A DNA stretch of 64,000 bases from Candidatus Omnitrophota bacterium (GCA_043812035.1 JBDRMR010000001.1:58-64057), one strand, 5' to 3'; positions 16,592 through 55,288 are shown, counted from the stretch's first letter. Program-made: numbers and translations. Notes: generated from the letters alone by a model not told the origin.

Positions 16592-18772
16592 TTACAACAG
16601 AGCGGGCATGCTTAACGCAGGGTGTCCGACTTTAGACAAAAACTCCAGAAGTTGCTCCGAAGTAGTAGATTGCGTCTCGTCGGCAATCTTATCCGGTAAA
16701 TCCGGGTATCCGCTTTCCTGGCAACTCTGTTTTAATTTTCCCCCCAAACTTTCCTTTAACTCTTTAGGCATCCATACTATGCGGGCTAATCCGCCGTCCG
16801 CGGAAATAAATTTTTTACTCAAGATATAAAGTTTGCCTATGCCCAAAAAACCCGGGGTCTGAACGCCTCCTCCTACCGAACCGGCCAATCCGGTAAAGGT
16901 CATCCCGCAGGGCGTCATGCCGGAATGGTCGCGGTTAACAATCATAAAACCGTTTGCTTCGGGAATAATTGCCACGATGCACTCGAAGCATCCGCAAGAA
17001 CTCTGAGGACTATCCATAAGTGAGTACATGCTTACTTTACTTATGGTCTTATTTGATTTTTCATACACAAATCTGTTCACGTTTTCCCATTGGCCGAACT
17101 TCTGCTCGAGTACCTTTCCTTTTGTTATCGGCTGGTTTGGACCGGTGGGCGTAATCTCGTAGCAGGTCTTGGCATCCAGCCAGGAATAAGCCCCGCAGAG
17201 ACCCAGTCGCTCAGGGGTAACGATGCAAACATGATTAGGAGCGAAGGATTGGCAAAGTAAACACGAATAATACGTGTCCACGCTCTCGTCAGTCATGCCG
17301 CTTATGCGGCTATCCCGCTCATCGTATACCTTTCTTGCTCCGGACAATAATCTTTCCACGTCGGGAAGCTGGGTATATAACTTTACCTGTACCTTATCCA
17401 CGATTGCGCCGTAGTCCTTATGAAACATTGCGTGTAAAAATATACCGAAATGCTTAAGGCGAATGCCCTTGCTGAAAGCCTGCTGATTTATCCTTATCCA
17501 GCACATATCTCTCTGGCCGATATGCATAATTCCCATTGCGTAATTTGTATACCGGTGTATCTGGCGCTCCAGGACCGGCTCGAAATCTTTTTGCATCTTG
17601 CGGCCGGCCACTTCCGCAACAATCGCAAGGGGCATTGATTTTTTCTCCTTATCCAACTGGTCTATGTCGGGGCCGATAAGTTCGACTTTCCCGTCTTCGA
17701 CCTCTCCCAGTTCATTAGAGGTGAGGTATTCGAGAGCCGTGGAAGCCTTTCCGCCGAATTCAACATACAACTGCTCCCTCCTCACGCGCTCTCCCTCAAA
17801 AGCCGCTGCGTAAGGAACCGGGATGGGAATTTGAGTGACCGTAACTTTAACTCCTCTTACCTCGATAGCCCGCGCAACAATCTTTTTATGGTCAAGCTCC
17901 TTAACCAAAGCCTCGTAAGTGGTTATGCCCGAGGGTCTAATCTCTGGAATCTCGGTATCGGCTATTACCGGAAAACCCATATTAATCGCTCCGGCTCCGG
18001 TGGCGTATTTTAAATCGTCGACTTCGCCCAAGGTCAGCCCGAAGGCAAATACTCTCTCTTTTGTGTACAACAGGCATTGCTTTGCCTGGCCGGCTTTCAA
18101 TCCGCCGAAGGTAAGCGCCGAACGGATAGCCCAGTTCAGAGGATATATTGCCGAAACCGTATCCCTTCCGTAAGGGACAATATAATTGTCCCAACCCATC
18201 TGCACATCCTCCTCGATTAATTGGTCGATTACGGAGCGCCCGCCGGTGCTTGAGCCGACGAAAATAAGGATGTTCCTCTCCTGCAATTGACGAACGATTT
18301 CAACTGCGGTCCGGTTATCCGGCGCCGCGCCAAGGATTGCCGCAAATCCCGGCATGCGGCCGTCAACCAGTTGAATCCCCAGGGAACGCATAATCGTATC
18401 GGTAAAGAAACCGTTGCAGTCTTTCTGCGGCTCCTTGCCGTTGAGATACCGCAAAGCCATAATTATCTCCTCGGCCAGAAGAGTGGCGATTCCCGCATCC
18501 AGCGCATTGCCTAAATAAGGAAGCCAAAGATTTTCGGAAGGCTCTCCGGGCAATAAAGACCTGGCGTGCTCTAATACGGGCCTTGCGTCCTTTAAAGTCT
18601 TTACCTGAACTCCCAATAAAGCGTATGTCATCGGAAGATAAAAAGCCGTTTCCGGAAACTCTAATTTCTGCGCTTCTTGTTTCTCTTCTACCGCCTTATT
18701 TAAGGAATCCTGTGCTTCTTTAACAATTTTTTTTGCTCCGCGAATAACCGCTGTTGCAACAACCCTGGACAT
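16592..18772 (-). CDS. acsB: acetyl-CoA synthase catalytic subunit (CODH/ACS A-cluster subunit, AcsB/CdhC type)
   Basis: 726 aa. A-cluster cysteines are present: CxxC...C...C (YYSCLLCQSF...VCIV...LCGAY) and the Ni-bridging Cys-Gly-Cys (SSCGCFEC). Confidence 0.85.
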   Translation of the reverse strand: MSRVVATAVIRGAKKIVKEAQDSLNKAVEEKQEAQKLEFPETAFYLPMTYALLGVQVKTLKDARPVLEHARSLLPGEPSENLWLPYLGNALDAGIATLLAEEIIMALRYLNGKEPQKDCNGFFTDTIMRSLGIQLVDGRMPGFAAILGAAPDNRTAVEIVRQLQERNILIFVGSSTGGRSVIDQLIEEDVQMGWDNYIVPYGRDTVSAIYPLNWAIRSALTFGGLKAGQAKQCLLYTKERVFAFGLTLGEVDDLKYATGAGAINMGFPVIADTEIPEIRPSGITTYEALVKELDHKKIVARAIEVRGVKVTVTQIPIPVPYAAAFEGERVRREQLYVEFGGKASTALEYLTSNELGEVEDGKVELIGPDIDQLDKEKKSMPLAIVAEVAGRKMQKDFEPVLERQIHRYTNYAMGIMHIGQRDMCWIRINQQAFSKGIRLKHFGIFLHAMFHKDYGAIVDKVQVKLYTQLPDVERLLSGARKVYDERDSRISGMTDESVDTYYSCLLCQSFAPNHVCIVTPERLGLCGAYSWLDAKTCYEITPTGPNQPITKGKVLEQKFGQWENVNRFVYEKSNKTISKVSMYSLMDSPQSSCGCFECIVAIIPEANGFMIVNRDHSGMTPCGMTFTGLAGSVGGGVQTPGFLGIGKLYILSKKFISADGGLARIVWMPKELKESLGGKLKQSCQESGYPDLPDKIADETQSTTSEQLLEFLSKVGHPALSMPALL

Positions 18773-18785
18773 CGATTCCCCCCTT

Positions 18786-20051
18786 TTAAACTATATAAAC
18801 CTCGTCCTTCTGTTTGAGCAAATCTAATATCTTAGCGTAATTAAAAGTTTCCGATGACAACTCATCCTTAATGAAAGATATGTCGGTTTCTTCTTTTATA
18901 AGCCTTAAAAATACTCCGCAATTCCTTATATCTCCAACAGCAATCATCCCGGCGAGGCGATTCCCCTTCAAAACAAACTTTTTATAAATATCTCTCTTTT
19001 CGTCCAAGAAGACAATCTCTTCGAATTCAGGGCTCTTGGGTCTGATTATTCCGATGGAGATAGCGCAGAGGCCGAAGAATTCAATTGAATTCATTGACAT
19101 TGAGCCGCCGTATTCGATATCCTGACCGGCCATATTAAAACCGGCTACCCTGCCTTGCTCAACCGCGTTAGGCCAAAGAGCATTAACGGCGCTGTTTTTA
19201 TAGGCGAGGTCAAAACTCTGGGCTACGTCTCCGGCGGCAAAAATATTAGGAACGTTTGTTTTCATGTATTTATCAACGAGTATCCCCTTATCGGTATTTA
19301 TCCGGGTTTCTTTGATTAAATCCGTATTCGGACTTACCCCTTTGCCTATAACCAGGATTGAACAAGCAATGACCTTGCCGGTGTCGAGCTTTATTGCCTT
19401 CAAATCTCCGTTTCCTAAAATCTCTACGATGTCCCTGCCGGTCATAATCTCTACTCCGGCCTCCCGGAATCTCTTCATAAAAAATCCAGCCCCCTTCTCG
19501 TCGAGCATCTGGGAAAGGACAAATCCGGATTTAACGATTACCTTTATTCCCTGCTTTCTCTTTAAAAGCCCATAAGCGGCCTTAAAACCGATCAATCCTC
19601 CGCCCAATACGCAGCTGGTAGAAGAAACCGGCACCAAGCCCAAAATCTCTTTTGCGTCCTTTATTGTCCTGAATCCGAACACCCCTCTTTTCTTAAGGGC
19701 CTTCAGGTCCGGCGGAAACTTCGCCGAAGCGCCGGTAGCAATAAGCAGCGCATCGTAACCTATCGAGGTCTTATCCTCAAAAACCACCTTATTTTTCTTC
19801 GGTTCGACTTTTGTCACCTTCTTATTAAGAATTAAATCCAGATTATTCTCCTTGTAAAAACTCTGGGGCCTGTAGACCAGTTTTTCTTCCGGAACGTCTC
19901 CGGCTAAAAAATAGGAGATAAGGCAACGGCAGTAGGCGTCGTAATCCTCTTCAGAGATTATGGTAATCTTGCCGCCTCTGTCTTTATCCCTGATTGCCTC
20001 CGCAGCGGCTATTCCCGCCGCGGAATTGCCGACAATAACGAAATTTTTCAT
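18786..20051 (-). CDS. FAD/NAD(P)-dependent pyridine nucleotide-disulfide family oxidoreductase (CODH-associated FNOR-like)
   Basis: 421 aa. N-terminal GxGxxG (VIVGNSAAGIAAA) and a second dinucleotide-binding motif. Gene order cooS-cooF-FNOR matches the clostridial cooS1 modules. Confidence 0.7.
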   Translation of the reverse strand: MKNFVIVGNSAAGIAAAEAIRDKDRGGKITIISEEDYDAYCRCLISYFLAGDVPEEKLVYRPQSFYKENNLDLILNKKVTKVEPKKNKVVFEDKTSIGYDALLIATGASAKFPPDLKALKKRGVFGFRTIKDAKEILGLVPVSSTSCVLGGGLIGFKAAYGLLKRKQGIKVIVKSGFVLSQMLDEKGAGFFMKRFREAGVEIMTGRDIVEILGNGDLKAIKLDTGKVIACSILVIGKGVSPNTDLIKETRINTDKGILVDKYMKTNVPNIFAAGDVAQSFDLAYKNSAVNALWPNAVEQGRVAGFNMAGQDIEYGGSMSMNSIEFFGLCAISIGIIRPKSPEFEEIVFLDEKRDIYKKFVLKGNRLAGMIAVGDIRNCGVFLRLIKEETDISFIKDELSSETFNYAKILDLLKQKDEVYIV

Positions 20052-20052
20052 C

Positions 20053-21150
20053 CTACAGCCTCTCTACAAGCTTATCTATATCGACGTTTTCTTTTACTAA
20101 CTTCTGCACCGCCTCTATCTTCTCTTTATCCTGAGGTCTTATTTTTATCATCAGGTCATGGATGCGCGAGGCGACGCTATAGGTGTCCAGCTTGGCCAGG
20201 AGAACGGGTATCTTCGCCTGCTCTAACAGGTCCATAATCTTCTTGTGGGGCACAATGTTTCCGGTCAGGATAATCCCGGAGATATTAATATGGTCGGCGG
20301 AATTTCTAAAACAACAGCCAAGAAAAGCCAGAATCATATCTTCGCGGTCACCAGGCGTAATAAGGAGTGCTCCGTCAACAAAGTAATTTATGGCGTTGTG
20401 CGGCTGCATCGCCCCGACGACTATCTTCTTGACTAAATTATTCAGGCTTTCTTTGCCGCATAGCAATTGATAGTCGGTCTCCTCCAATATTTGCTCAATC
20501 GTCGGGCAGGACAACAGGGGTAGATAAGGCATGACTCCCAGGACCTCGATGCCTTTGCGCCCCAGCCCCTTCCTTACCAGTTTATTTACCTTGGAGAATT
20601 TTTCGGGCAAAACCTTGTTGATGACTACGCCGAGCAGCTCTATCCCTTCTTTTTCAAAAAGCGTCTTATTGAGAATAATTTCGTCGATAGGCCGGCCGAT
20701 ACCTCCTGAGGAAATGAGCAGAACTTTCGAATCTAACAATTTCGCCACGAAGGCATTGGAGTGGTCGAACACCGAACCGACCGCAGCGTGTCCGGTCCCC
20801 TCGATAATCATCAGTTCTTTATCCTGGGCTATTCGCGAAAAGGATTCTTTTATCTGACCTGTCAGCCTCTTGCTGTCGGGGTTAAGAATATATTTTTCTG
20901 TAAACCCGCGCTCCACGGCAATGGGGCTCATATCTTTAAGAACGTATCTTATGCCCAATGACTCAAAAAGCCTCTCTATCAGAACAGAATCCTCGTCTAC
21001 CTTTTCGCCTTCTTCCATAAGGTAGCGCTGGCCTATCGGTTTAATAAACCCGATTTTCTTAAACTTCTCCCTGAGATTAAAAATCAAACCCAGCGCAAGC
21101 GTAGTCTTGCCGTCATTTTGCTCTGTCGCGGCTATGAACAACTTTTTCAT
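20053..21150 (-). CDS. P-loop (CobQ/BioD-like) plus DRTGG domain protein, resembling the N-terminal domain of phosphotransacetylase
   Basis: 365 aa. MKKLFIAATEQNDGKTTLALGL P-loop. C-terminal ITPGDREDMILA resembles a DRTGG motif. No Pta catalytic domain. Confidence 0.5.
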   Translation of the reverse strand: MKKLFIAATEQNDGKTTLALGLIFNLREKFKKIGFIKPIGQRYLMEEGEKVDEDSVLIERLFESLGIRYVLKDMSPIAVERGFTEKYILNPDSKRLTGQIKESFSRIAQDKELMIIEGTGHAAVGSVFDHSNAFVAKLLDSKVLLISSGGIGRPIDEIILNKTLFEKEGIELLGVVINKVLPEKFSKVNKLVRKGLGRKGIEVLGVMPYLPLLSCPTIEQILEETDYQLLCGKESLNNLVKKIVVGAMQPHNAINYFVDGALLITPGDREDMILAFLGCCFRNSADHINISGIILTGNIVPHKKIMDLLEQAKIPVLLAKLDTYSVASRIHDLMIKIRPQDKEKIEAVQKLVKENVDIDKLVERL

Positions 21151-21583
21151 CGCTCTCCTGTAAAATAATCGCTCCGGTCAGGCAGGCCTTGACGCATGCC
21201 GGCCCAACCTCATCTTTGCATTTGTCGCAGCGTATGGGAATCTTGGTTTTTAGGTTTGGCCTGATTGCCCCGTAGGGACAGACCATCACGCACATCCAGC
21301 AGCCCACGCACCGGCTTTCTTCATGCAAAACCGTTTGGCTATGTCCGTCGTAAGTCAATGCGCCCGCCATGCAAGCATCAACGCAGGGGTGCTCCTGGCA
21401 ATGGCGGCAGGAAACGGGAAAATTTTTGTCTTTTGTTCTGTAAACCTTCTTCCGCGGCAGGGACAATATCTCTTCCTTAAGCGCCTTGAGCAAATTTTTG
21501 CTTTGCGAGTGGACCACGGCGCAGACAATCTCGCAAGATTTGCAACCGAGACATTTTTTAATATCGTAAAGGAGTTTATTCAT
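21113..21583 (-). CDS. cooF: 4Fe-4S ferredoxin-type iron-sulfur protein (CooF-like)
   Basis: 156 aa with four CxxCxxCxxxC(P) clusters. Lies immediately downstream of cooS. Confidence 0.75.
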   Translation of the reverse strand: MNKLLYDIKKCLGCKSCEIVCAVVHSQSKNLLKALKEEILSLPRKKVYRTKDKNFPVSCRHCQEHPCVDACMAGALTYDGHSQTVLHEESRCVGCWMCVMVCPYGAIRPNLKTKIPIRCDKCKDEVGPACVKACLTGAIILQESDEKVVHSRDRAK

Positions 21584-23498
21584 ACATCACGGGGCTAAGC
21601 TTCAGCGCTTTCCTTTTCTCATCAATGTGCTCAATCATGAGCTTAGCCATTTCCTTAGGGTCGCCGCAGAAAGCAAACTTTCCCGCTACCTGTTCCTCTA
21701 AACCCCCGCATAGATAATCGGTCAAATTTGGACTCCCTAAAGTGGGAAAGGGATTTGCGCCAAATACGGTAAAAACCCCGCTGGCCACAAAATACATACC
21801 GATGGTAATCGCTTTCTCGGACATCCATTCGGGCGCAGCTCCGGCTGCAGGGATATCGGACAAATCCTCACCCAAGCCGCCCTGCGCAATTATCTGGGAA
21901 GCGGCGGTTAGAATCCTGCTATTGTCAACACAGGAGCCTAAATGCAGAACCGGAGGAATACCCACGGCTTCGCAGATTTCCTGCAAGCCCCTGCCCGCAA
22001 ACTCCCTGGCGGCTTCGGGGACTAAGAGTCCCTGCTTTGCGCAGGCAATTGCTGAACAACCGGTCTGCAGCACTAAAACATCCTTTTTAATTAACTCTTT
22101 AACCAATGCGGTGTGAAAATAATCGTGGGTCTGCTTGGGGTTGTTGCACCCCACCACGCCTGCTACTCCCCGCAGCCGGCCCTGAATAATCGCGTCATTC
22201 AAGGGCTGATAAGTCGCTCTGTATCTTCCGCCCAGAATCTGAAACACGACCTCTTTGGTAAACCCAGCAATCAAATCCATCTCTTGTTTGGGAATACCAA
22301 CCCGCTCTTTGTTTCTGTTAGAAAAGTTTTCAATCCCTATCTTTATAATCTTCTTGGCGACTTCATAAGCATCTTTTGTCTGAAACTCTATATGCTCGAC
22401 TCCGGGAAACTTTGCCTTAGTGCTGGTGGTGACCAGCCTGGTATGAAAACAACTGGCAACCTCCTGTAATGCCGGCATAATGCATTGCACATCCACCATC
22501 ATCACCTCAACCGCGCCTGTAACGATGGCTAATTCCTGCTGCAGGAAATTTCCTGCCACCGCTATGCCGTGACGCATCAATACCTCATTTGCCGTGCAGC
22601 AGATTCCAGCCAGGTTTATGCCCTTGGCGCCTTTGGCCTGAGCCAGCTTTAACAACTCCGGATCCTGACTTGCCTTAACCGCCATCTCGGACAATACCGG
22701 CTCATGTCCGTGGACGACAATGTTAACGCTATCTTCTTTCAATACGCCCAGATTGACCTTTCCGCGAATGGGCTGCGGCGAGCCCAGGATTATGTCCTGC
22801 AGGTCCGTCGCCACCATTGAGCCGCCCCAACCGTCGGACAAGGCGCAACGCAAGCTGTTCTTTATTATATTCCTGTAATCGTTGTCTACGCCCATGGTCG
22901 TAGTGTGCAACAATTCCACAACCTCCCTGTCAATGCCCCGCGGGACAATACCCAGCTTCCTCCAGATATCCTGCCTTTTCTTTGGCGCCCGCTTTATAAA
23001 GCTGAGCTCGCCCTCCTGCTTTCCAAACTCATCCAATATCTTTCTGGCCAGCTCTTTGGCTATAACTTCCTGGGGTTTGTTTGTATCTATGGAGAACTCT
23101 GCGGCCAATTCCTTTAGTTTTTTGATATCCGAAATCCCGTAGTCATGGGCTTTGCCTTCGGCTAACAACAATAACGTATGGGCCACGTCTCTGCCGTGGT
23201 CGGAATGGGCTGAAGCGCCCACTGCAACCTTGCGGCCGAGGTTTCGGGCGGCGATTGTATCCGCATTGGCTCCGCAAACACCTGCTTGCGGCCCTTCGCC
23301 AAACGGGTCAATCCTGCAAGGCCCCATATCGCAGACGGTACAACACAACCCCAGTTGGCCGAAACCGCACTGCGGCTGCTGCTGCTCTAACCTCTCCCAG
23401 GCGGTGCGGACATTCTCCTCCTGCGCTTTCTTTAATGCCTCTTGCGTAGCTAAGTCTATAGATTTTGATTTTATATCTCCCATTAATGACCTCCGCAA
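21576..23498 (-). CDS. cooS: anaerobic carbon-monoxide dehydrogenase catalytic subunit (CooS/AcsA)
   Basis: 640 aa. N-terminal B/D-cluster motif CGFGQLGLCCTVCDMGPCRI. Full-length Ni-CODH similarity. Confidence 0.9.
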   Translation of the reverse strand: MRRSLMGDIKSKSIDLATQEALKKAQEENVRTAWERLEQQQPQCGFGQLGLCCTVCDMGPCRIDPFGEGPQAGVCGANADTIAARNLGRKVAVGASAHSDHGRDVAHTLLLLAEGKAHDYGISDIKKLKELAAEFSIDTNKPQEVIAKELARKILDEFGKQEGELSFIKRAPKKRQDIWRKLGIVPRGIDREVVELLHTTTMGVDNDYRNIIKNSLRCALSDGWGGSMVATDLQDIILGSPQPIRGKVNLGVLKEDSVNIVVHGHEPVLSEMAVKASQDPELLKLAQAKGAKGINLAGICCTANEVLMRHGIAVAGNFLQQELAIVTGAVEVMMVDVQCIMPALQEVASCFHTRLVTTSTKAKFPGVEHIEFQTKDAYEVAKKIIKIGIENFSNRNKERVGIPKQEMDLIAGFTKEVVFQILGGRYRATYQPLNDAIIQGRLRGVAGVVGCNNPKQTHDYFHTALVKELIKKDVLVLQTGCSAIACAKQGLLVPEAAREFAGRGLQEICEAVGIPPVLHLGSCVDNSRILTAASQIIAQGGLGEDLSDIPAAGAAPEWMSEKAITIGMYFVASGVFTVFGANPFPTLGSPNLTDYLCGGLEEQVAGKFAFCGDPKEMAKLMIEHIDEKRKALKLSPVMYE

Positions 23499-23522
23499 AT
23501 AATAAATGACGAAATAAGCTAT

Positions 23523-24398
23523 CTACAGTCCAGCTGCATCCAGAACCAGCGGAACCTTCTTATCCCAGCCAATCGGCATAATATGAATGCCCTGACACAC
23601 CGGCTTAAGTTGCTTGATAAGCCGAGCGGCTATCTCAACCGATTTCTTTGACCTGTCTTGTTTTGCTGCCGAGTTCATTTCATCGATTAAATCCTGCGGG
23701 ACGGTAACTCCGGCTACGTTTTCGTTCATGTATTTTGCCATCCCCGCGGATTTTAACAAAACGATACCGGCGAGTATCGTAGTCTTCAAATGCTTAATCC
23801 TGGACAGAAAATTTTCATAGACCTTTATGTCATATACCGCCTGAGTCTGAAAAAACTCAGCACCTTGCTCGATTTTCTTCTCCATCTTGATAATCTGAGG
23901 CTCTATTGGGTCTGCTCCGGGATTTACCACTGCTCCGACGCAAAATTTAGGCGGCTCGCCCTCAAGATTATTGCCTGCCATGTCAAAACCTTCCTGGAGT
24001 TTCTCTACCACGCCCAATAACTGCACGGAATCCAAATCGAACACCGGCTTTGCCTGAGGGTGGTCTCCCATAGTCGTATGGTCGCCGGTTAAGACTAAAA
24101 TATTCTCGATGCCCAGACTTGCAGCGGATAGAATGTCCGACTGCAGAGCCAGGCGATTGCGGTCCCGGCAGGTTATCTGGAATATCGGCTCAAATCCTCT
24201 CTGCTTCAGGAGTGCGCACACCGCCAATGAACCCAATCTCATCACCGAACTCTGCAGGTCCGTGACGTTTATTGCGTCAACCCTGCCGCGAATGAGCTCT
24301 GCGTCCTCCAAAATCACCTTGGTCTCAATCCCCTTCGGAGGCCCTATCTCAGAGGTCACCAGAAATTTTCCTGCCCGAATCTTTTCCTTAAAACTCAT
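23523..24398 (-). CDS. metF: 5,10-methylenetetrahydrofolate reductase
   Basis: 291 aa MTHFR TIM-barrel (FLVTSEIGPPKG...). Sits within the folate-branch cluster. Confidence 0.85.
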   Translation of the reverse strand: MSFKEKIRAGKFLVTSEIGPPKGIETKVILEDAELIRGRVDAINVTDLQSSVMRLGSLAVCALLKQRGFEPIFQITCRDRNRLALQSDILSAASLGIENILVLTGDHTTMGDHPQAKPVFDLDSVQLLGVVEKLQEGFDMAGNNLEGEPPKFCVGAVVNPGADPIEPQIIKMEKKIEQGAEFFQTQAVYDIKVYENFLSRIKHLKTTILAGIVLLKSAGMAKYMNENVAGVTVPQDLIDEMNSAAKQDRSKKSVEIAARLIKQLKPVCQGIHIMPIGWDKKVPLVLDAAGL

Positions 24399-24411
24399 CT
24401 CTTCTCCATGC

Positions 24412-24921
24412 CTATCCCACCAACCTGGCGACTAAATGACCAATACCATGCGAAATAACAATAACAAATAAAGCCAGTAAAACATGCTCAGAGATAAGTA
24501 TTACTGAGTTTTCCTGTTTTACCCTGGCAATAGCAAAGTTAAGAAAAACTAGTAGTAATATTCCCCAAGCAATGGCAACGAAGACGGCATTTCTTAAAGG
24601 AAGAATCAAAAAGGGGACAGCAAAAGTTAAAGTAAAAGTAAGTTTAGAAATAAAAGTAAAGATGGTAGCTGCCCAAATTTCCTTTTGAGTATGCTTAGCG
24701 GTTCCCTTTTCAAGCTCTGATTCCTCAGATATATGCACGCCTGCTGCATCGGATAAACCATCAGCTATTGCCAGAATTATGACGCTGGCAATAACCACTA
24801 ATCGTGAAGAGGTGGCTGAATTCAAACCCACAATCATCCCCAGAGAAGTAATTACCCCAGAGGTCATACCGAAAGAAACTCCTGTCATTAACTGATGAAA
24901 ATATTTTTTAATCATCCACAA
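24412..24921 (-). CDS. small integral membrane protein, VIT1/CCC1-like (DUF125) candidate
   Basis: 169 aa with about 5 predicted TM segments. The AIADGLSDAAG motif resembles the VIT family. Homology not verified. Confidence 0.4.
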   Translation of the reverse strand: MWMIKKYFHQLMTGVSFGMTSGVITSLGMIVGLNSATSSRLVVIASVIILAIADGLSDAAGVHISEESELEKGTAKHTQKEIWAATIFTFISKLTFTLTFAVPFLILPLRNAVFVAIAWGILLLVFLNFAIARVKQENSVILISEHVLLALFVIVISHGIGHLVARLVG

Positions 24922-24929
24922 ATACCTGT

Positions 24930-25769
24930 CTATGCTTGCAGCTTGGTTGCCTCAACTACATTACACATCAACATTATTACGGTAAGTGGACCTACCCCAC
25001 CAGGAACAGGCGTAATCCAAGAGGCGCGCTTTACTGCTTGGTCAAACTCCACATCTCCCACAATCTTATCACCAACCCGATTTATGCCTACATCAACAAC
25101 CACTGCCCCCTGTTTAATCCATGCACCCTTAATTAATCCTGCTTTTCCCACAGCCACAACCAAAATCTCAGCGCTCTTTACATGCTCTTCTAACTTGCCC
25201 GCCTGGGATGTTCCGATATGGCAGACTGTGACTGTAGCAAATTTCTCAAGAAGAAGAAGCGATAAGGGTTTACCCACAATCTCACTGTGTCCGACAATTA
25301 CCACCTCTTTTCCATATAAATCAACTCCCGTCTGTTTTAACAATTCCATCACTGCCGCTGGGGTGCAAGGCAAAATCCTTGCTTTACCAAACGTGATTTT
25401 GCCCATATTCATCGGATGCATTCCCTCTGCATCTTTCTCGGGCAGAATAAAGTTGCTCATCTTTTTATAATCGATTTGTGCCGGCAGTGGCATTTGCAGT
25501 ATTATTCCATTTACGCCCTTATCCTGGTTTAATCTCTGTATAAAATCTATCAGCTCTTGCTCTTTTGTTTCCTGATTTAATTTGTGGAACTGATAGTCTA
25601 TACCCAAATTCTCTGCGGTTTTCTTCTGCGACTTTGCATAAGACTCAGCCCCAGCGTTCTCTCCTACCTGAATGCTAATCAATACCGGCTTTATCTTCAA
25701 TTCCTGAATTCTCTTCTTTAACTCTTCCTTAATTCTATTAGCAATCGGTTTACCCTCTAATAATTTCAT
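24930..25769 (-). CDS. folD: bifunctional methylene-THF dehydrogenase / methenyl-THF cyclohydrolase
   Basis: 279 aa. MKLLEGKPIANRIKEEL N-terminus. Conserved FolD core. Confidence 0.9.
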   Translation of the reverse strand: MKLLEGKPIANRIKEELKKRIQELKIKPVLISIQVGENAGAESYAKSQKKTAENLGIDYQFHKLNQETKEQELIDFIQRLNQDKGVNGIILQMPLPAQIDYKKMSNFILPEKDAEGMHPMNMGKITFGKARILPCTPAAVMELLKQTGVDLYGKEVVIVGHSEIVGKPLSLLLLEKFATVTVCHIGTSQAGKLEEHVKSAEILVVAVGKAGLIKGAWIKQGAVVVDVGINRVGDKIVGDVEFDQAVKRASWITPVPGGVGPLTVIMLMCNVVEATKLQA

Positions 25770-26310
25770 CTATCCTTTCCTCCAGATTATGACGCATTTT
25801 TATTATTGTACCCCTCTTTTTATCTAACTCTTTATTTATTTTATCTGCCCTTTTTTTATTGTTTAAATATTTCAGATTTATCCTTACATTAAATAAAGCG
25901 CTGGAAAATCCTGACTCAAGCAAAATAGCGGCAACCGCCACATCGCTAATCAAATTTATATTACCTTTTTTTAATAAGGTTGGGCATAGCCTTAAAACCT
26001 CAGAGCAAAGTCTGGCTATCTCTAGAGGAACTCTAAGCGATTTATTTATATCTTTACTCTTAAAAGCCAAGACATCTAAATCCACAAGTTGCAAAAACCT
26101 CTTTCTTGCTTTTTCTGTAACAGATAATACCCTGGCTAAATCTGCTCGATATTTTGCATATTTTGGTTTACCGAGGGTAAAATTAATAACCATACCAATT
26201 AAAGCTGCCCCCAGCGCTGCAGTCAATGCCGCTGCAGAACCTCCTCCCGGAGCAGGAAGCTTTGCCGCCAGGTCATCCAGATATTTCTTAAGAGATTTAT
26301 TGTAATACAT
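25750..26310 (-). CDS. fchA: formiminotransferase-cyclodeaminase C-domain family protein (methenyl-THF cyclohydrolase FchA-like)
   Basis: 186 aa. LPAPGGGSAAALTAALGAAL signature of the cyclodeaminase/cyclohydrolase family. Located between fhs and folD as in acetogens. Confidence 0.7.
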   Translation of the reverse strand: MYYNKSLKKYLDDLAAKLPAPGGGSAAALTAALGAALIGMVINFTLGKPKYAKYRADLARVLSVTEKARKRFLQLVDLDVLAFKSKDINKSLRVPLEIARLCSEVLRLCPTLLKKGNINLISDVAVAAILLESGFSSALFNVRINLKYLNNKKRADKINKELDKKRGTIIKMRHNLEERIDEIIRG

Positions 26311-26317
26311 AAATTTT

Positions 26318-26385
26318 TAGCGTGCAGCGGATAGCGTACAGCGTTTAGTATTTCCTATACGCTATACGCTATACGCTCTACGCTA
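26318..26385. repeat. heptamer-based palindromic intergenic element (family B, copy 3); overlaps the fhs stop codon
   Basis: tagcgtgcagcggatagcgtacagcgtttagta-tttcc-tatacgctatacgctatacgctctacgcta. The final cta at 26383-26385 is the fhs TAG stop. Confidence 0.7.
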
Positions 26386-28089
26386 AAATAAGCCTGTAAT
26401 CTTTCCGTTTTCGTCAATATCAATCTTCTCTCCGGCAGGATGACTGGGCAAACCGGGCATTGTCCGCATTGACCCGCATAATAAATACAAGAATCCCGCT
26501 CCAACCGAGGCGCGTATATCCCGGATGGGTAAAGTAAACCCTTGAGGACGTCCTTTTATTTTAGGGTCGTGCGAAAGGGAAAGGTGGGTCTTGGCCATAC
26601 ATATAGGCAGTTTATCGTAACCAAACTTCGTATAAAGCCTTATCTTAGCACGAGCGGCTTCTTCATAACGAACAGCTCCTGCGCCATAAATCTTCTTGGC
26701 AATTGTCTCAACCTTTTTTTTGATTGGCCAATTAAGCGAATAGAGAAATTTAAAACTGGATTTCTTCTCGGCAGCGCGCACAACTGCCTTAGCCAGCTCC
26801 TCCCCGCCCTTAGAGCCTCTTGCCCAAACCTCACTGAGAACTGCATCTTCTGCGCCTGCCTCAATGGCCTTTTTACGAATCAGCTCTATCTCTCTTTTTG
26901 TATCGGTAGTGAATTTATTTATCGCCACCACCACAGGCACGCCAAATAGCTTCATATTTTCTATTTGCTTCTCTAGATTAGAACACCCTTGCTCCAGAGC
27001 CTCCAGATTTTCCTGCAGGAGCCTCCGGTCAAGCGGTTTACCAGCAACAACAGTAAACTTGCCCGAATGCATCTTCAGCGCCCGAACAGTGCAAACCAAA
27101 ACCACACAATCAGGCCGAAGGCCGCTTATCCGGCACTTTATGTTAAAGAACTTCTCTGCCCCACAGTCAGCGCCGAAGCCAGACTCAGTAACAACGTACT
27201 CCGAAAGCTTCAAAGCGATTTTATCAGCAAGGATGGAGCTGTTACCGTGGGCGATATTGGCAAATGGACCGGCATGGACAAAACAGGGAGTGTTCTCGAT
27301 AGTCTGCAGCAAATTGGGTTTAAGCGCATCTTTAAGCAAAACCGTCATTGCGCCAGCTACCTTGATATCCTCGGCAGTAACGGGTCTACCGTCTTTTGTG
27401 GTAGCTAACACGATACGGCCAAGGCGCTTACGCAAATCCTCCAGCCCATTGGTCAGGGCAAGTATAGCCATTACCTCGCTGGCCACGGTTATATCAAATC
27501 CGGAATCCCGCGGGAAACCATCCTCTGATCCGCCTAAACCGATCTTTATATTACGCAAAAACCTGTCCGAGACATCAACTACGCGGCGCCAGATTATCGA
27601 GGAGGGGTCTATATTGAGTGGATTTCCCTTTAGGATAGAATTGTCCAAAAATGCCGCGCAGAGATTATGTGCCAGGCCTACTGCATGGACATCGCCGGTA
27701 AGATGCAGGTTGAAATCCTCCATTGGAACGACCTGAGAATAACCTCCACCGGCCGCACCCCCTTTTATCCCGAATACAGGACCCAGTGAGGGCTGACGGA
27801 TACAAACAGTAGTTTGCTTGCCGATCCGGTTCAAAGACATAGCCAGACCAATAGTGGTAACCGTCTTTCCTTCGCCCAAGGGAGTGGGTGTTATTGCGGT
27901 TACATCGATATACTTGTTATTCTTCCTGTCCTTTAAACGTTTTAAAGTTAACAAAGATACCTTTGCCTTATAGTCTCCATAAAGATAGAGTTCTTTCTGC
28001 TTAAGCCCTAAGCTCTTGGCAATTGTCTTTATGGGCACCAAACGTGCGCGTCTGGCGATCTCTAAATCAGTCAGCATTACTACCTCCAC
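26383..28089 (-). CDS. fhs: formate--tetrahydrofolate ligase
   Basis: 568 aa. [16 protein letters not shown]-loop of FTHFS. Confidence 0.95.
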
Positions 28090-51147: not shown

Positions 51148-52755
51148 TCATAAGAGTTTAATCAGCTTCACCGCCAGGATATTCTCGATGTTCCTAATCT
51201 TGCCGAGTAGCTCTTGAGGAATATTGCTGTCGACGTTTAATACGCTTATCGCTTCTCCGCCGGGCTCTCTGCGCCCAAAGGTCATGCTGGCGATATTGAC
51301 GTTATGCTGACCTAAAAGAGTTCCGAGATTCCCGATAATTCCCGGCTTATCCCAATTCTTTATCACAATCATATACCCGCAGGGAGAAAGTTCGACATAG
51401 AAATCGTCGATCTTAACGATTCGCGGTTGCCTGTTGGGCGACAGGGTGGCCTGAATCTCCCTTGTCTCTTTATCGGTATCTATTCTAACGGAGATTAAAT
51501 TGACAAATTCCTCTTCCTGCGACAACTTTGTCTCTTTAACCTTAATCTTGCGCGCCTCCGCCAAAGACAGAGCGTTTACAAAATTAACCGAATCTTCCAA
51601 TATGGGCGCAAGGATTCCTTTGATTAAGGCCATGGTTATAGGAGCGACGTCGTGCTGGGTTATTCCGCCGCTGTAACGTATGGATACCGACCTCAGCCGT
51701 CCCTCGCAAAGCTGGCTGCTGAAATTTCCTAACGATTGGGCTAAGTTTATATAAGGAGCGAGAGTCTTGTAAACCTCGGGTTCAATGCTCGGGTAATTAA
51801 CCGCATTGCGTATGCCTCTGCCGAGCAGATAATCGCGCACGCACTCCGCAATTTCAACAGCCACATTCACCTGAGCTTCTTCCGTAGAAGCCCCCAGATG
51901 CGGAGATGCTATCACGTTTTCAAACCTAAGAATCTCGGAATCCGGGTTGGGAGGCTCATGCTCGAACACATCCAGGCAGGCGCCGGCAATCTTGCCCTGC
52001 TTTATTGCCCTTGCTAACGCTTCCTCGTCGATAATGCCGCCCCGGGAGCAATTTATAATCCTCGCTCCCTCTTTCATTAAAGCGAATTCCTTATCGGAAA
52101 ACATATGCTGGGTGTTTTCTACAAGCGGGGTATGGACGGTAATAAAATCTGAATTCTTTAACAACTCCTCCAGCTCAACCATCGCTACTCCTAAACCCTC
52201 CCCTATATCTTTAGAAAGGTAAGGGTCGAACGCAATAACCTTCATTCCGAAAGAAAGCGCCCGCTTAGCCACTTCCGTGCCGATCCTGCCCAAGCCGATA
52301 ATGCCTAATGTCTTTTTATAAAGTTCCACACCCATAAATTTAGAGCGCTTCCATTCTCCGGATTTGACTGAGTTGTTTGCCTGAGGGATATTCCGCGCCG
52401 CCGCAAGCAGCATACTCATTGTGTGCTCGCAAGTGGAAATTGTGTTTCCCGCCGGAGCGTTCATCACCACTATCCCTCTTTCGGTTGCGGCATTTAAATC
52501 CACGTTGTCCAGCCCGACTCCCGCACGGCCGATAACCCGCAGTTTTCTGGCGGACTTGATAATCTCTTGCGTCACTTTGGTTGCGCTCCTTACTATAAGA
52601 GCATCGCAAACTGCTACGGCCTCTCTTAATTCCTCCGGTCTCAATTCCGTCTTAACCTCGACGGTAAATTCTTTTATATCTCTTAAAATCTTTAACCCTT
52701 CTTCAGAGAGCTTATCGCTGACTAAAATCCTCATGGACCATCGTCCTCCTGTCAT
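51148..52755 (-). CDS. serA: D-3-phosphoglycerate dehydrogenase (with C-terminal ACT domain)
   Basis: Full-length 2-hydroxyacid dehydrogenase plus ASB/ACT domains. Likely true start at MRILVSDKL (ATG 52732-52734). Confidence 0.9.
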   Translation of the reverse strand: MTGGRWSMRILVSDKLSEEGLKILRDIKEFTVEVKTELRPEELREAVAVCDALIVRSATKVTQEIIKSARKLRVIGRAGVGLDNVDLNAATERGIVVMNAPAGNTISTCEHTMSMLLAAARNIPQANNSVKSGEWKRSKFMGVELYKKTLGIIGLGRIGTEVAKRALSFGMKVIAFDPYLSKDIGEGLGVAMVELEELLKNSDFITVHTPLVENTQHMFSDKEFALMKEGARIINCSRGGIIDEEALARAIKQGKIAGACLDVFEHEPPNPDSEILRFENVIASPHLGASTEEAQVNVAVEIAECVRDYLLGRGIRNAVNYPSIEPEVYKTLAPYINLAQSLGNFSSQLCEGRLRSVSIRYSGGITQHDVAPITMALIKGILAPILEDSVNFVNALSLAEARKIKVKETKLSQEEEFVNLISVRIDTDKETREIQATLSPNRQPRIVKIDDFYVELSPCGYMIVIKNWDKPGIIGNLGTLLGQHNVNIASMTFGRREPGGEAISVLNVDSNIPQELLGKIRNIENILAVKLIKLL

Positions 52756-54125
52756 TTCTTTTTGCTGTATATCTCGTATGTCTCGCCTGTGACTAAACCC
52801 TGTTCGTATATTTTATCTATGGAACTTTGCATTAAATGCATTGCGGACTGAGCGCCTGACTGAATTATCGAATTCAATTGAATAAAATTTCTATCGTGGA
52901 TTGTTCTTTTTACCGCATAGTTGGCTATGCAAACTTCCGTAGCCAGAACGCGCTCAAGGCCGTTTTTATGAGGCAATAAAGCCTGGATAATTATCGCTCT
53001 TAAGCAATGGGATAGCCTGCTGGAAATAAAAGTCTGTTGCTCTAAAGGGAAAAGGCTTATAATCCGGTCCAGGACCTGCAGGGTATCGGCGGCGTGGATT
53101 GAAGTTATAACCATATGACCCGTCTCTGCGGCATTAAGAGCCGTCTCTATAGTATCGGCGTCTACCACTTCGCCTACCACAATTACATCGGGGTCCTGCC
53201 TCAAGCTGGCCGTTAATCCGGAGGCAAAGGAAGGAACATCCACGCCCACTTCTCTTTGCTTGACTATTCCCTTTACATTCTTATGCATGTATTCTATCGG
53301 TTTCTCCAGCGAAAGTATTACCCCTCCTTTTGTGCGGTTGATTATGTCTATCATCGACGCTATGGTTGTGGTCTTGCCTGACCCGGTGGTGCCGGCGATA
53401 ATTATTATTCCGTCTGTTAACTTGCATAACTCTTCAATAATGGGAGGTAACCCTAAATCTTCCCTGGTCTTTATCTGAGAAGGGATAATTCTGAAAACGA
53501 CCTCTACGTTGCCGCGCTGTTGATAAACGCTTACTCTGAATCTTAAATCCGTCCCGAGGGAGTAGACAAAATCCAGGTCTTTGGCATCTTCGAACTTTTG
53601 CCTTTGCGGCTCCGAAAGTATGCTGTAAACCATCTGCTCGACTTCGCCCGCTGAAAGCGGCTGCGCTTCTGACTCCAAAGGCCTGATCCTTCCGTATATT
53701 CTCACCATAGGAGGAGAGCCGCTGGTAAGATGCATATCGGATGCCTTGCTCTCCGCCGACCTCCTTAGCAACTTTAAAATATCCATGCGGTCGATTCGCT
53801 GCCTGATTTCTTCTTCTATATCCGCGGGTATCTGCACAAACACCGCGCCGATGTTGAAGTTATGCGAGACAAGCAATCTCTCGACTCTTACGACCTCAGC
53901 CTTTGCTTCTATTAATCTCGGCGGCGAGCCCGGCAAACGAAGATTAAATTTAATCTTCGTGCCTATCGGTATCTCTTTCACGTTTTCAAAGAGCAAGCCT
54001 TTGGCGCTGATATTTTTAGTTATTGCGCTGCGCCTGGACTCGGGGACTCCTTTTGAATCCAATATCTCGTAAGTAAACTTAATCCTTGCGGGAATCCGGA
54101 CTGCCTGCCTGCGCTCTACCGTCAT
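52752..54125 (-). CDS. pilT: PilZ domain fused to a PilT-type type IV pilus retraction ATPase
   Basis: 457 aa. N-terminal PilZ motifs RRQAVR and NISAKG. Then PilT N-domain (SDMHLTSGSPPMVRIYGRI), Walker A GTTGSGKTTT, DPDVIVVGE. Confidence 0.8.
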   Translation of the reverse strand: MTVERRQAVRIPARIKFTYEILDSKGVPESRRSAITKNISAKGLLFENVKEIPIGTKIKFNLRLPGSPPRLIEAKAEVVRVERLLVSHNFNIGAVFVQIPADIEEEIRQRIDRMDILKLLRRSAESKASDMHLTSGSPPMVRIYGRIRPLESEAQPLSAGEVEQMVYSILSEPQRQKFEDAKDLDFVYSLGTDLRFRVSVYQQRGNVEVVFRIIPSQIKTREDLGLPPIIEELCKLTDGIIIIAGTTGSGKTTTIASMIDIINRTKGGVILSLEKPIEYMHKNVKGIVKQREVGVDVPSFASGLTASLRQDPDVIVVGEVVDADTIETALNAAETGHMVITSIHAADTLQVLDRIISLFPLEQQTFISSRLSHCLRAIIIQALLPHKNGLERVLATEVCIANYAVKRTIHDRNFIQLNSIIQSGAQSAMHLMQSSIDKIYEQGLVTGETYEIYSKKK

Positions 54126-54151
54126 ATCTTTCTCCTGTTTGTTCTTGCTTA

Positions 54152-55288
54152 CTATTTCAAAAATGTCTCCTGGGCTGCCTTAACGCCCGCCCCCAGCTGA
54201 AACTTGTAACCCATTTGAAATAGAACCTTTTCTAAACAAGAGATTGCCAGTATAATGTCGAATTCTTCGATGTAGCCCATGTGGGCGATGCGGATAATCT
54301 TTCCCTTTAATTCCCCCTGTCCTCCGGCAATGGTAATCCCGTATTTGTCGCGCATGGTTTTCACCAGCTTGCCGCCGTCGATGCCGGAAGGGACGCGGAT
54401 TGCCGTAACCACGTCGGAGGCGGCATCCGGAGCGAGCAATTCCAGGCCCAGCCCCTTGGCTGCCTGCCGCGCAGCCTCGGCCATGTGCTTATGGCGCAGA
54501 AAAGTATTCTCCAGCCCTTCTTCTCTCAACATCTTCAGAGATTCGTTTAAAGCGACAATCAAAGAGATAGCCGGAGTAAAAGGCGTATCCGTTTTATCCA
54601 GAGATTTCTTGGCCGACCTTAAATCAAAATAATATCGGGGCGATTTTGACTGCCCGATTAAATTCCAGGCCTTGGAGCTTACGGAAATAAATCCCAGTCC
54701 GGGGGGGAGCATCAATCCTTTCTGAGAACCGGAAACTACCGCATCGCAGAACCAGGCATCGGACGACAAAGGCACTGCGCCTAAACTGCTAATCGCGTCG
54801 ACCACAAGCACAGCCCCGGTATCTTTTATTATTTTTCCGATTGCCTGTATGTCATTGATTACCCCGGTCGAGGTTTCGCAGTGGGTCGCGAGTACCGCCT
54901 TTACCTTAGGATTTGACTTTAACCTCTTTTCTATTTCTCCGGGCTCAACGGCCTTGCCCCACTCTACTTCGATAACCTCGCAATTAACCCCGTAAGCGCG
55001 GCAAATCTCCGTCCAGCGCTGGCCGAATTTTCCGCCTTCAACCGTTACTGCGGTATCTTGAGGAGAAAGTAAATTTGCCACAGCCGCCTCCATAACTCCC
55101 GTTCCCGAGGAAGCAAAAATAAATACGTCGTTTTCCGTCTGAAATACATATTTAAGGCCTTCTTGGGCCTGTTTCAAAATCTCCTGAAACTGAGGAGTGC
55201 GGTGATGGATTATCGGCCGGCTCAGCGCCTCGGTTATCCGGGGAGGCAAGGGAGTCGGTCCCGGGGTTAATAAGTAAGTTTTCCTCAT
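54152..55288 (-). CDS. class V aminotransferase (serine-pyruvate / alanine-glyoxylate or phosphoserine aminotransferase type)
   Basis: 378 aa. LLTPGPTPLP N-terminus typical of the AGXT/SGAT family. PLP lysine region SGSQKGLM. Lies near serA. Confidence 0.75.
   Translation of the reverse strand: MRKTYLLTPGPTPLPPRITEALSRPIIHHRTPQFQEILKQAQEGLKYVFQTENDVFIFASSGTGVMEAAVANLLSPQDTAVTVEGGKFGQRWTEICRAYGVNCEVIEVEWGKAVEPGEIEKRLKSNPKVKAVLATHCETSTGVINDIQAIGKIIKDTGAVLVVDAISSLGAVPLSSDAWFCDAVVSGSQKGLMLPPGLGFISVSSKAWNLIGQSKSPRYYFDLRSAKKSLDKTDTPFTPAISLIVALNESLKMLREEGLENTFLRHKHMAEAARQAAKGLGLELLAPDAASDVVTAIRVPSGIDGGKLVKTMRDKYGITIAGGQGELKGKIIRIAHMGYIEEFDIILAISCLEKVLFQMGYKFQLGAGVKAAQETFLK

Follow-up and report, generated by a model that had tools for sequence, protein, structure and literature searches.

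The stretch of DNA analysed here, 64,000 nucleotides (nt) from a Candidatus Omnitrophota bacterium (GCA_043812035.1 JBDRMR010000001.1:58-64057; hereafter the window), carries on its minus strand a gene that joins a PilZ domain, predicted to receive c-di-GMP (cyclic dimeric guanosine monophosphate), to a PilT-type pilus motor ATPase (Table 1). As the initial annotation had proposed, PilZ and PilT lie in a single open reading frame (ORF), and both halves pass the thresholds of their profiles. The N-terminal part matches Pfam PilZ (PF07238) over amino acids (aa) 4–111, covering profile positions 1–100 of 102, with 38.6 bits against a gathering cut-off of 22.5, which removes the initial reservation that the N-terminus might fall short of the PilZ profile. 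The remainder matches Pfam T2SSE (PF00437; aa 189–386, 121 bits) and the NCBIfam model TIGR01420 (pilT_fam, PilT/PilU; aa 116–450, 386.4 bits, cut-off 319.1). In the NCBIfam scan of the fusion, the TraJ, DotB, ComGA, GspE, PilB, VirB11 and TadA models all scored far below their own cut-offs.

Table 1. Features of the PilZ-PilT fusion gene and its surroundings, in window coordinates (SD, Shine-Dalgarno sequence)
Feature	Position	Strand	Remarks
PilZ-PilT fusion gene	52752–54125	−	457 aa plus stop codon; ORF call, Pfam, TIGR01420
SD AGGAGA	54131–54136	−	5 nt 5′ of the fusion ATG (54125–54123); read from sequence
PilZ domain, aa 4–113	53787–54116	−	barrel aa 16–97 and helix aa 101–113; Pfam, AlphaFold (AF2), Foldseek
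RxxxR motif, R6-Q-A-V-R10	54096–54110	−	within flexible N-terminal tail; alignment
[D/N]xSxxG motif, N38-I-S40-A-K-G43	53997–54014	−	alignment of 100 homologues
Fusion junction, M114-D-I	53778–53786	−	column of the ancestral PilT start codon; about 2 unstructured residues; alignment, DSSP
PilT N-terminal (PAS-like) domain, aa 116–215	53481–53780	−	arginine fingers R197, R212; structural match to PilT4
Walker A, GTTGSGKT, aa 245–252	53370–53393	−	alignment
Asp box, LSLEKPIEY, aa 271–279	53289–53315	−	K275 at the canonical Asp position
Atypical Walker B and catalytic Glu, DPDVIVVGEVVD, aa 311–322	53160–53195	−	V321 at the GEMRD Arg position
His box, TGHMVITSIH, aa 335–344	53094–53123	−	alignment
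AVKRTIHD, aa 404–411	52893–52916	−	diverged counterpart of AIRNLIRE; alignment, tree comparison
serA (D-3-phosphoglycerate dehydrogenase), downstream	51148–52734	−	probable start ATG 52734; SD AGGAGGA 52744–52750
Class-V aminotransferase (SerC/AGXT-like), upstream	54152–55288	−	26 nt from the fusion; Pfam Aminotran_5, 117 bits
Wood-Ljungdahl cluster	16592–28089	−	
ACS/CODH beta	16592–18772	−	in Wood-Ljungdahl cluster
CooS/prismane-type CODH	21576–23498	−	in Wood-Ljungdahl cluster
FTHFS	26383–28089	−	in Wood-Ljungdahl cluster

The PilZ half retains the residues that contact c-di-GMP. The initially annotated motifs RRQAVR and NISAKG were located by direct reading at aa 5–10 and aa 38–43 of the fusion. 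We took as canonical a PilZ domain with RxxxR in its N-terminal tail and [D/N]xSxxG 20–30 residues later; in the fusion, 28 residues separate R10 from N38. Counted over 100 full-length fusion homologues, the contact residues are conserved in 99/100 (R6), 98/100 (R10), 100/100 (N/D38), 88/100 (S40) and 99/100 (G43), with position 38 occupied by Asn in 82 homologues and by Asp in 18, and S40 replaced by Asn or Gly in a minority. R6 and R10 are also invariant in a 35-sequence PilZ alignment. The alignment of PilZ N-domains has a mean column identity of 47% and five invariant columns, three of which are R6, R10 and G43, while the remainder of the domain drifts to 22–57% identity among family members. 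By this comparison, the ligand-binding motifs of the fused PilZ domain are under strong purifying selection, and from the intact, conserved contact motifs we infer that the domain binds c-di-GMP.

The predicted fold agrees with this assignment. A full-length AF2 model built from 106 sequences has a predicted local distance difference test score (pLDDT) of 92.5 and a predicted template modelling score of 0.83, and the PilZ domain modelled alone keeps the same topology (pLDDT 89.1). In the models, strands span residues 16–22, 32–39, 43–48, 57–64, 70–83 and 90–97 and a helix spans 101–113, which together make up the six-stranded antiparallel barrel with C-terminal helix of PilZ domains; the N-terminal 10 residues containing RxxxR are modelled at a pLDDT of about 62–64. 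By sequence, the PilZ domain alone found no match among PDB chains even at E ≤ 10, although a fold search did find PilZ structures. Indeed, the best PilZ-domain matches of Foldseek against the PDB, namely MotI/DgrA (template modelling score TMq 0.82), Alg44, YcgR, BcsA, MrkH, PA0012 and MapZ, are without exception PilZ domains known to bind the ligand. When the family N-domains were turned into a profile, it collected 17,804 matches at E ≤ 1e-3, which are general PilZ proteins, and it finds stand-alone and di-PilZ proteins at E of about 1e-20. The N-domain is also distinct from MshEN, as first annotated: the Pfam scan gave no T2SSE_N/MshEN match to the fusion at E ≤ 1, and the modelled N-domain is an all-β barrel whose fold resembles c-di-GMP-bound PilZ domains. 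Together, sequence and model mark the N-domain as an ordinary canonical PilZ domain and a predicted c-di-GMP receptor. It is very improbable that the domain no longer binds c-di-GMP and acts as a structural or interaction module, like the PilB-binding PilZ of Xanthomonas. PilZ domains that do not bind the ligand do regulate type IV pilus (T4P) ATPases, as in the PilB-PilZ-FimX system (PMC8389850), and the replacement of S40 in some homologues would fit such a role; however, both motifs are intact and 88–100% conserved against a background of far lower identity, the topology with its C-terminal helix is canonical, and the nearest folds are ligand-bound canonical PilZ domains, with the non-canonical tetrameric Xanthomonas PilZ ranking far lower.

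The fusion belongs to a conserved family. The initial annotation called for a survey of this architecture, and a search space of 5.8 billion proteins, clustered at 90% identity, returned more than 100 clusters that combine PF07238 with PF00437 in 455–470 aa (sources NCBI, JGI, ENA and Logan). The homologues range from 88% down to about 36–40% identity, and every named cluster source is Candidatus Omnitrophota. A scan of GTDB species representatives gave full-length matches in about 22 genomes, one of them a single-cell genome (SAG AM-311-M22); the majority bear the label Omnitrophota, and a few metagenome-assembled genomes (MAGs) carry other, unconfirmed labels (Planctomycetales, Patescibacteria group, Verrucomicrobiota, Zixiibacteriota). 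Since the fusion is kept in so many independent clusters from four sources, one of them contributing a single-cell genome, an artefact is refuted. A join through misassembly or a frameshift was rejected on the same count, together with the single ORF found in each case, the gene's own SD, the coincidence of the junction with the PilT start and the continuous, high-confidence helices across it. PilZ-PilT is thus a conserved family, common among the Omnitrophota sequences retrieved. Source annotations name these proteins merely PilT (for example, "PilT/PilU family ATPase"), so that the database annotation conceals the receptor domain. Three Sumerlaeota PilT ORFs (L055:2715-4088, L069:5467-7035 and L080:468-1964) have N-terminal extensions of 110–176 aa without a PilZ profile match; these ORFs may have been called too long, or the extensions may be N-terminal domains of another kind.

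The two halves meet at the former start of PilT. Stand-alone PilTs begin with M[DE][IL]xxLL, and the fusion has M114-D-I-L-K-L-L in that column, directly after the PilZ helix. In the AF2 model, DSSP leaves only residues 114–115 between helix 101–113 and helix 116–125. The PilZ domain has thus, by alignment and model, been added onto an intact PilT N-terminus without a flexible linker, which favours rigid mechanical coupling over a freely moving tethered sensor. M114 is kept in-frame in the window's subclade (window 53784–53786) and is Leu, Phe or Ile in other subclades; an internal start at this codon, yielding a PilT isoform without PilZ, is conceivable.

The ATPase part spans 342 aa, a PilT-like length. 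Over its whole length it can be aligned with Aquifex PilT (E 9e-87), and also with other PilT and PilU structures; over the aligned structures, identity is 44–48% to Aquifex PilT and 37–48% across the solved PilT/PilU structures. The AF2 ATPase superposes on Geobacter PilT4 with a TMt of about 0.9 and a root-mean-square deviation of 1.4–2.1 Å, and its fold resembles PilT at least as closely as PilU. In all 100 homologues, G245, G250 and K251 of Walker A and D311, G318 and E319 of the Walker B region are present; Asp-box E274 and E278 and the arginines R195, R197 and R212 are invariant, and of the His-box residues H337 is found in 94/100 and H344 in 100/100. The set that is universal among PilT-like ATPases comprises both Walker motifs (A and B) with the catalytic Glu, a pair of arginine fingers and the Asp-box Glu that binds Mg (McCallum 2017, PMC5424180). 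This set is fully present in the fusion as K251, G318-E319, the arginine fingers R197/R212 and E274/E278, and the 15-residue spacing of the fingers is that of R271/R286 in GmPilB (PMC5424180). With every universally conserved catalytic residue in place, the fusion ATPase is most likely active.

Both partners of such a protein have a setting in the phylum. Type IVa pilus (T4aP) clusters occur in nearly all Omnitrophota, namely in 135/141 Velamenicoccia genomes and in 19/23, 11/13 and 38/40 species of other classes (Seymour et al. 2023, PMC10066038). The same study proposes host-attachment roles for these pili, leaves PilT and c-di-GMP unmentioned, and reports Tad systems as well (PMC10066038). 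GGDEF domains occur in Omnitrophota giant proteins, with small pilZ genes downstream, and conserved loci resembling the type II secretion system (T2SS) flank the giant genes (West-Roberts et al., bioRxiv 10.1101/2023.11.21.568195). Within the roughly 0.93 Mb of loci that we retrieved, a GGDEF regular expression gave no convincing diguanylate cyclase, and only HD-GYP-type proteins were found. Stand-alone PilZ genes adjoin fusions at L031:5452-5886 and L039:7398-7859. At L009:10893-12785, within 5 kb of the fusion, a stand-alone PilZ gene is followed by a gene of the GAF-HD-GYP (HD_5) phosphodiesterase type; at L008:9733-11634 the ORFs have the same size and order, with the PilZ ORF alone confirmed by profile. 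PilZ and GAF-HD-GYP beside the fusion may form a local c-di-GMP module. GAF-like/HD-GYP-type proteins also lie 3–4 kb downstream of canonical PilT in two Omnitrophota MAGs (L033:10200-11372 and L079:11160-12326), where they carry HHERxDGxGYP and score 111–121 bits against Pfam HD_5. The literature and the PilZ and HD-GYP neighbours together argue that the phylum has both pilus machinery and a c-di-GMP network.

On this basis we lean, with some reserve, towards a c-di-GMP-gated motor of the PilT family that acts on pilus dynamics; ligand binding, regulation of the hexamer and action on T4aP are the steps that we infer. Six PilZ domains would sit on the N-domain side of the hexameric ATPase ring. 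There, c-di-GMP supplied by the phylum's reported GGDEF proteins would bind to the R6xxxR10 tail and the N38xS40xxG43 strand, and the resulting rearrangement of PilZ would pass rigidly through the near-straight helix-helix junction to the PilT N-domain, which forms the mobile "packing units" and bears the arginine fingers. The outcome would be an altered ATPase cycle, altered docking to the type IVa PilC/PilM platform, or both, such that the second messenger would directly govern how the pilus retracts or its dynamics in general. For the sign of this control we can offer a guess by analogy: high c-di-GMP would inhibit retraction, favouring persistent pili and attachment. The PilZ domains of BcsA and Alg44 are activating, which is the opposite sign to the inhibition guessed here. 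The guess follows from the behaviour of V. cholerae MshE, through which high c-di-GMP leads to extension of the MSHA pilus, while low c-di-GMP correlates with retraction (PMC7096442).

The catalytic core does, however, differ from canonical PilT at specific sites. The Asp box of the window protein reads LEKPIE against the canonical IEDPIE, and GEVVD stands against the canonical GEMRD. Position 275 is Lys in 83, Arg in 11 and Gln in 4 fusions and Asp in 8/8 canonical PilTs, and position 321 is Leu in 66, Val in 9 and Ile in 8 fusions and Arg in 8/8 canonical PilTs; all 70 PilZ-less PilT sequences examined have the D/R pair at the Asp-box and GEMRD positions. In a sister subclade (L010-L018, L021, P0106, P0110) the charges are swapped, with Arg at the Asp-box site and Asp or Glu at the GEMRD site. 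Since the two positions covary in this way, they probably touch, and the covariation suggests a direct 275–321 contact that has been rewired in the PilZ-bearing PilT-like proteins. At a third site, where canonical Omnitrophota PilT has A[IV]RNLIRE, the consensus of the clade is A-[VI]-[RK]-R-x-I-x-x; the AIRNLIRE motif reportedly has a role in PilT function in P. aeruginosa. By neither motif test of a canonical PilT, IEDPIE with GEMRD or AIRNLIRE, does the window protein qualify. The initial description of a complete PilT therefore holds in so far as both Walker motifs, the catalytic Glu, an Asp box and a His box were all found, and has to be amended for the D-to-K, R-to-V and AIRNLIRE-to-AVKRTIHD changes.

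When 103 ATPase-core sequences were arranged in a tree by neighbour joining, the window-type fusions fell into a clade of their own (clade A), apart from canonical Omnitrophota PilT, all of which have IEDPIE, GEMRD and A[IV]RNLIRE, and from PilU-like tandem paralogues. Four other PilZ fusions (L019, L020, L031 and L047) have fully canonical PilT motifs and cluster with canonical PilT in the tree, so the PilZ-PilT architecture is not restricted to a single lineage of PilT. Several genomes hold more than one of these proteins. On one contig (L004), a fusion and a canonical PilT lie 3 kb apart; MAG CAJVXN01 has a fusion (L007) together with a canonical PilT (L070); and MAG CAYPRG01 has two different fusions, one of the window clade with LEKPIE (L005) and one with canonical PilT motifs (L031). 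CAYPRG01 is labelled Planctomycetales, yet its synteny is Omnitrophota-like. As far as alignment and tree can tell, the window protein is a distinct PilT-like paralogue beside canonical PilT.

Several observations weigh against a c-di-GMP-gated motor that itself sets pilus dynamics. The clade departs from PilT at the Asp-box Asp (to Lys or Arg) and the GEMRD Arg (to hydrophobic or acidic residues), both of which are invariant in the canonical PilTs compared; the AIRNLIRE motif has diverged to AVKRTIHD in the window protein; the canonical PilT that co-occurs with the fusion at L004 and in CAJVXN01 may be the real retraction motor; pilus structural genes adjoin the fusion in 0/11 annotated loci, which cover the window subclade and five other subclades; and all family sequences come from uncultivated organisms. 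The first three of these, with the separate clade and the two fusion paralogues of CAYPRG01, would suit an accessory or regulatory PilT paralogue, either a c-di-GMP-dependent co-motor resembling PilU or a competitor or plug of the PilC/PilM platform, which would tune the access of PilB and canonical PilT without depolymerising the pilus itself. PilT paralogues with divergent roles are known, as in Geobacter PilT1-4 (PMC5065972), and PilU is described as a PilT-dependent motor (PMC6762196). We regard this alternative as possible but doubtful: a passive plug sits poorly with invariant catalytic residues and invariant arginine fingers, which point to a working ATPase, and by its fold the protein is no further from PilT than from PilU. 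A more speculative and rather unlikely extension of the gated-motor proposal is that PilT and PilU have a third counterpart in the clade of the fusion, a class of PilT-like motors obligately dependent on c-di-GMP for ATPase activity or platform engagement, and that the Asp-box/GEMRD rewiring, which lies beside the active site, is the adaptation that would make the motor ligand-dependent. If true, the fusion would provide the ultra-small, host-dependent Omnitrophota with a second-messenger-triggered "grappling hook" onto prey or host, and no earlier case of a retraction motor with its own direct c-di-GMP receptor would precede it.

The genomic setting bears on which machine the fusion serves. 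As initially annotated, the gene lies between serA and an aminotransferase, the former downstream and the latter, of class V, upstream. The window further contains PNPase, trp/aro genes, RF1, Rho, glycogen synthase, PolA, and translation/replication and isoprenoid genes, and neither direct annotation nor synteny with annotated loci revealed a type IV pilus gene in its 64 kb. Upstream ORFs of 568, 395 and 366 aa, suspected of being pilB, pilC and pilT, proved to be FTHFS, Tgt and RuvB. The initial label of an orphan is thus apt for the absence of pil genes from the window and less so otherwise, as the family is common in the retrieved Omnitrophota and its gene stands in a syntenic housekeeping block of about 20 kb, kds/lpt-tig-clpP-aminotransferase-fusion-serA-HMGL-like-purA-OmpA-DUF4912-GH57, that holds in relatives from 88% to 53% identity. 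Canonical PilT genes (L004:14077-15141 and L064:6001-7062) are placed similarly: one lies between leuC and leuD, and another after rplQ-aminotransferase and before leuB. Omnitrophota thus seem to keep their PilT genes within housekeeping operons as a rule, and standing as an "orphan" is the usual state of a PilT gene in this phylum.

Against this background we consider it unlikely that the fusion drives a different machine related to type IV filaments, for instance a Tad pilus, a system for taking up DNA, or the T2SS-like locus found beside the giant genes. The lack of linkage to T4aP genes in 11/11 annotated loci would fit, as would the occurrence in Omnitrophota of T2SS-like loci, of small pilZ genes beside the GGDEF giant genes and of Tad; PilT-like proteins can also belong to other systems, which has been suggested for PilT1 of Geobacter, encoded in the recA operon (PMC5065972). 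However, the best profile is that of type-4a PilT/PilU, with DotB, TraJ, GspE, ComGA, VirB11 and TadA far below their cut-offs, and the fusion is unlinked to those systems too in every locus examined.

The spacing of the neighbouring genes was also revised. A 4-nt overlap with the serA start, claimed at first, exists only for the longest serA ORF, which begins at ATG 52755 and forms an ATGA overlap with the TGA of the fusion. A perfect SD, AGGAGGA, precedes by 9 nt a second in-frame ATG (52734), 21 nt past the start of the longest ORF, and this start yields a SerA of 528 aa; serA orthologues are 527–528 aa long, with 2-Hacid_dh, PGDH_inter and ACT domains, and begin 16–37 nt past the fusion stop. 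Given the SD at the second ATG and the length of the orthologues, the overlap is probably a start-codon miscall of the longest-ORF kind, and with the start at 52734 the two genes are 17 nt apart. The fusion thus lies in a tight co-directional block, tig-clpP-aminotransferase-fusion-serA-...-purA, with which it is probably co-transcribed. The co-transcription suggested initially is made plausible by this tight spacing, although promoter and terminator matches give it no backing: a scan of 47–60 kb found no more of them than shuffled sequences did (16 versus 14.0 ± 3.8 and 17 versus 15.6 ± 4.8). A gene of 575–586 aa without a Pfam match lies between serA and the HMGL-like gene in several syntenic relatives (L002:13022-14767, L087:12990-14750 and L088:12994-14721); neither the window nor L001 has it.

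A link to serine biosynthesis was rejected, since the serA synteny is confined to the window's subclade. In distant subclades the fusion follows rplQ, stands beside tRNA synthetases, dnaE, PPDK or glmS, or stands beside hom/thrC, and the serA block is absent from the remaining fusion loci. With these subclades in unrelated housekeeping contexts, the linkage to serA is a lineage-specific gene order and not a functional module. An artefactual join, or a function tied to serine biosynthesis, is extremely improbable: the position between the aminotransferase and serA is its sole support, and it is opposed by more than 100 independent clusters, by the gene's own SD, by the junction at the PilT start and by the unrelated contexts of the other subclades. 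Elsewhere in the window, a Wood-Ljungdahl cluster (Table 1) also encodes a pyridine nucleotide-disulphide oxidoreductase, a CooC-like ATPase, ferredoxin, MTHFR, FolD and an FTCD_C-like cyclodeaminase, and it fits the acetogenic Omnitrophota of the literature.

The proposed c-di-GMP-gated motor would extend what is known of pilus control. Direct second-messenger control of T4P motors is known only through MshEN extension or secretion ATPases, or through adaptors (PilZ-FimX on PilB). A PilZ-PilT protein with conserved ligand contacts offers a simple, testable system for such control on a retraction-type motor, and it would couple the pilus motor straight to c-di-GMP signalling in a phylum with near-universal T4aP, pili for which a part in attaching to hosts or prey is proposed. 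The family suggests that Omnitrophota control type IV pili by a second messenger acting directly on the motor. It is apparently undescribed: we found no description of a PilZ-PilT fusion in open-access full text, and PilT and ATPases are absent from a preprint on PilZ diversity. Both parts and the general logic are already known from PilZ-output fusions and from c-di-GMP control of T4P motors.

Compared with PilT and PilU (TIGR01420; Aquifex aeolicus, P. aeruginosa and Geobacter PilT4), the fusion shares the build of N-domain and C-terminal domain, the catalytic motifs, the arginine fingers and the fold (TMt about 0.9), and it is encoded away from other pil genes, as pilT is in many bacteria. 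It differs in its additional 115-aa N-terminal PilZ, its Lys/Val pair, AVKRTIHD and its own clade. The paralogues PilT1 (recA operon) and PilT2 of Geobacter sulfurreducens resemble it in lying outside pil clusters, in co-transcription with housekeeping genes, which is probable for the fusion, and in occurring several to a genome (PMC5065972), but they have no PilZ domain.

The MshEN ATPases (V. cholerae MshE, the GspE-type PA14_29490 of P. aeruginosa and some PilB) belong to the same hexameric superfamily and likewise carry an N-terminal c-di-GMP receptor, through which the ligand governs pilus dynamics directly (PMC5013675, PMC4624772, PMC7096442). Their receptor is the helical MshEN/T2SSE_N domain, with the tandem 24-residue motif RLGxx(L/V/I)(L/V/I)xxG(L/V/I)(L/V/I)xxxxLxxxLxxQ (PMC10333796), whereas that of the fusion is a PilZ β-barrel, and MshE and PilB extend or secrete, whereas the fusion is of PilT type. 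A 2023 review lists V. cholerae PilT as a non-binder of c-di-GMP and MshEN as the receptor on PilB/GspE-type ATPases (PMC10333796). In the PilB-PilZ-FimX system of Xanthomonas and P. aeruginosa, a PilZ-fold protein is likewise seated on the N-terminal part of a T4P motor and connects it to c-di-GMP signalling (PMC8389850); there, in contrast to the fusion, the PilZ protein is separate, non-canonical and non-binding, the ATPase is the extension motor PilB, and FimX senses c-di-GMP. In BcsA, Alg44 and YcgR/MotI, a canonical PilZ domain places the machine to which it is attached or bound under the control of c-di-GMP, and in PilZ-DnaK of M. xanthus an N-terminal PilZ domain is fused to an ATPase (PMC10313047). 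What sets the Omnitrophota family apart from these PilZ-output fusions and brakes is its output, a PilT-like hexameric ATPase.

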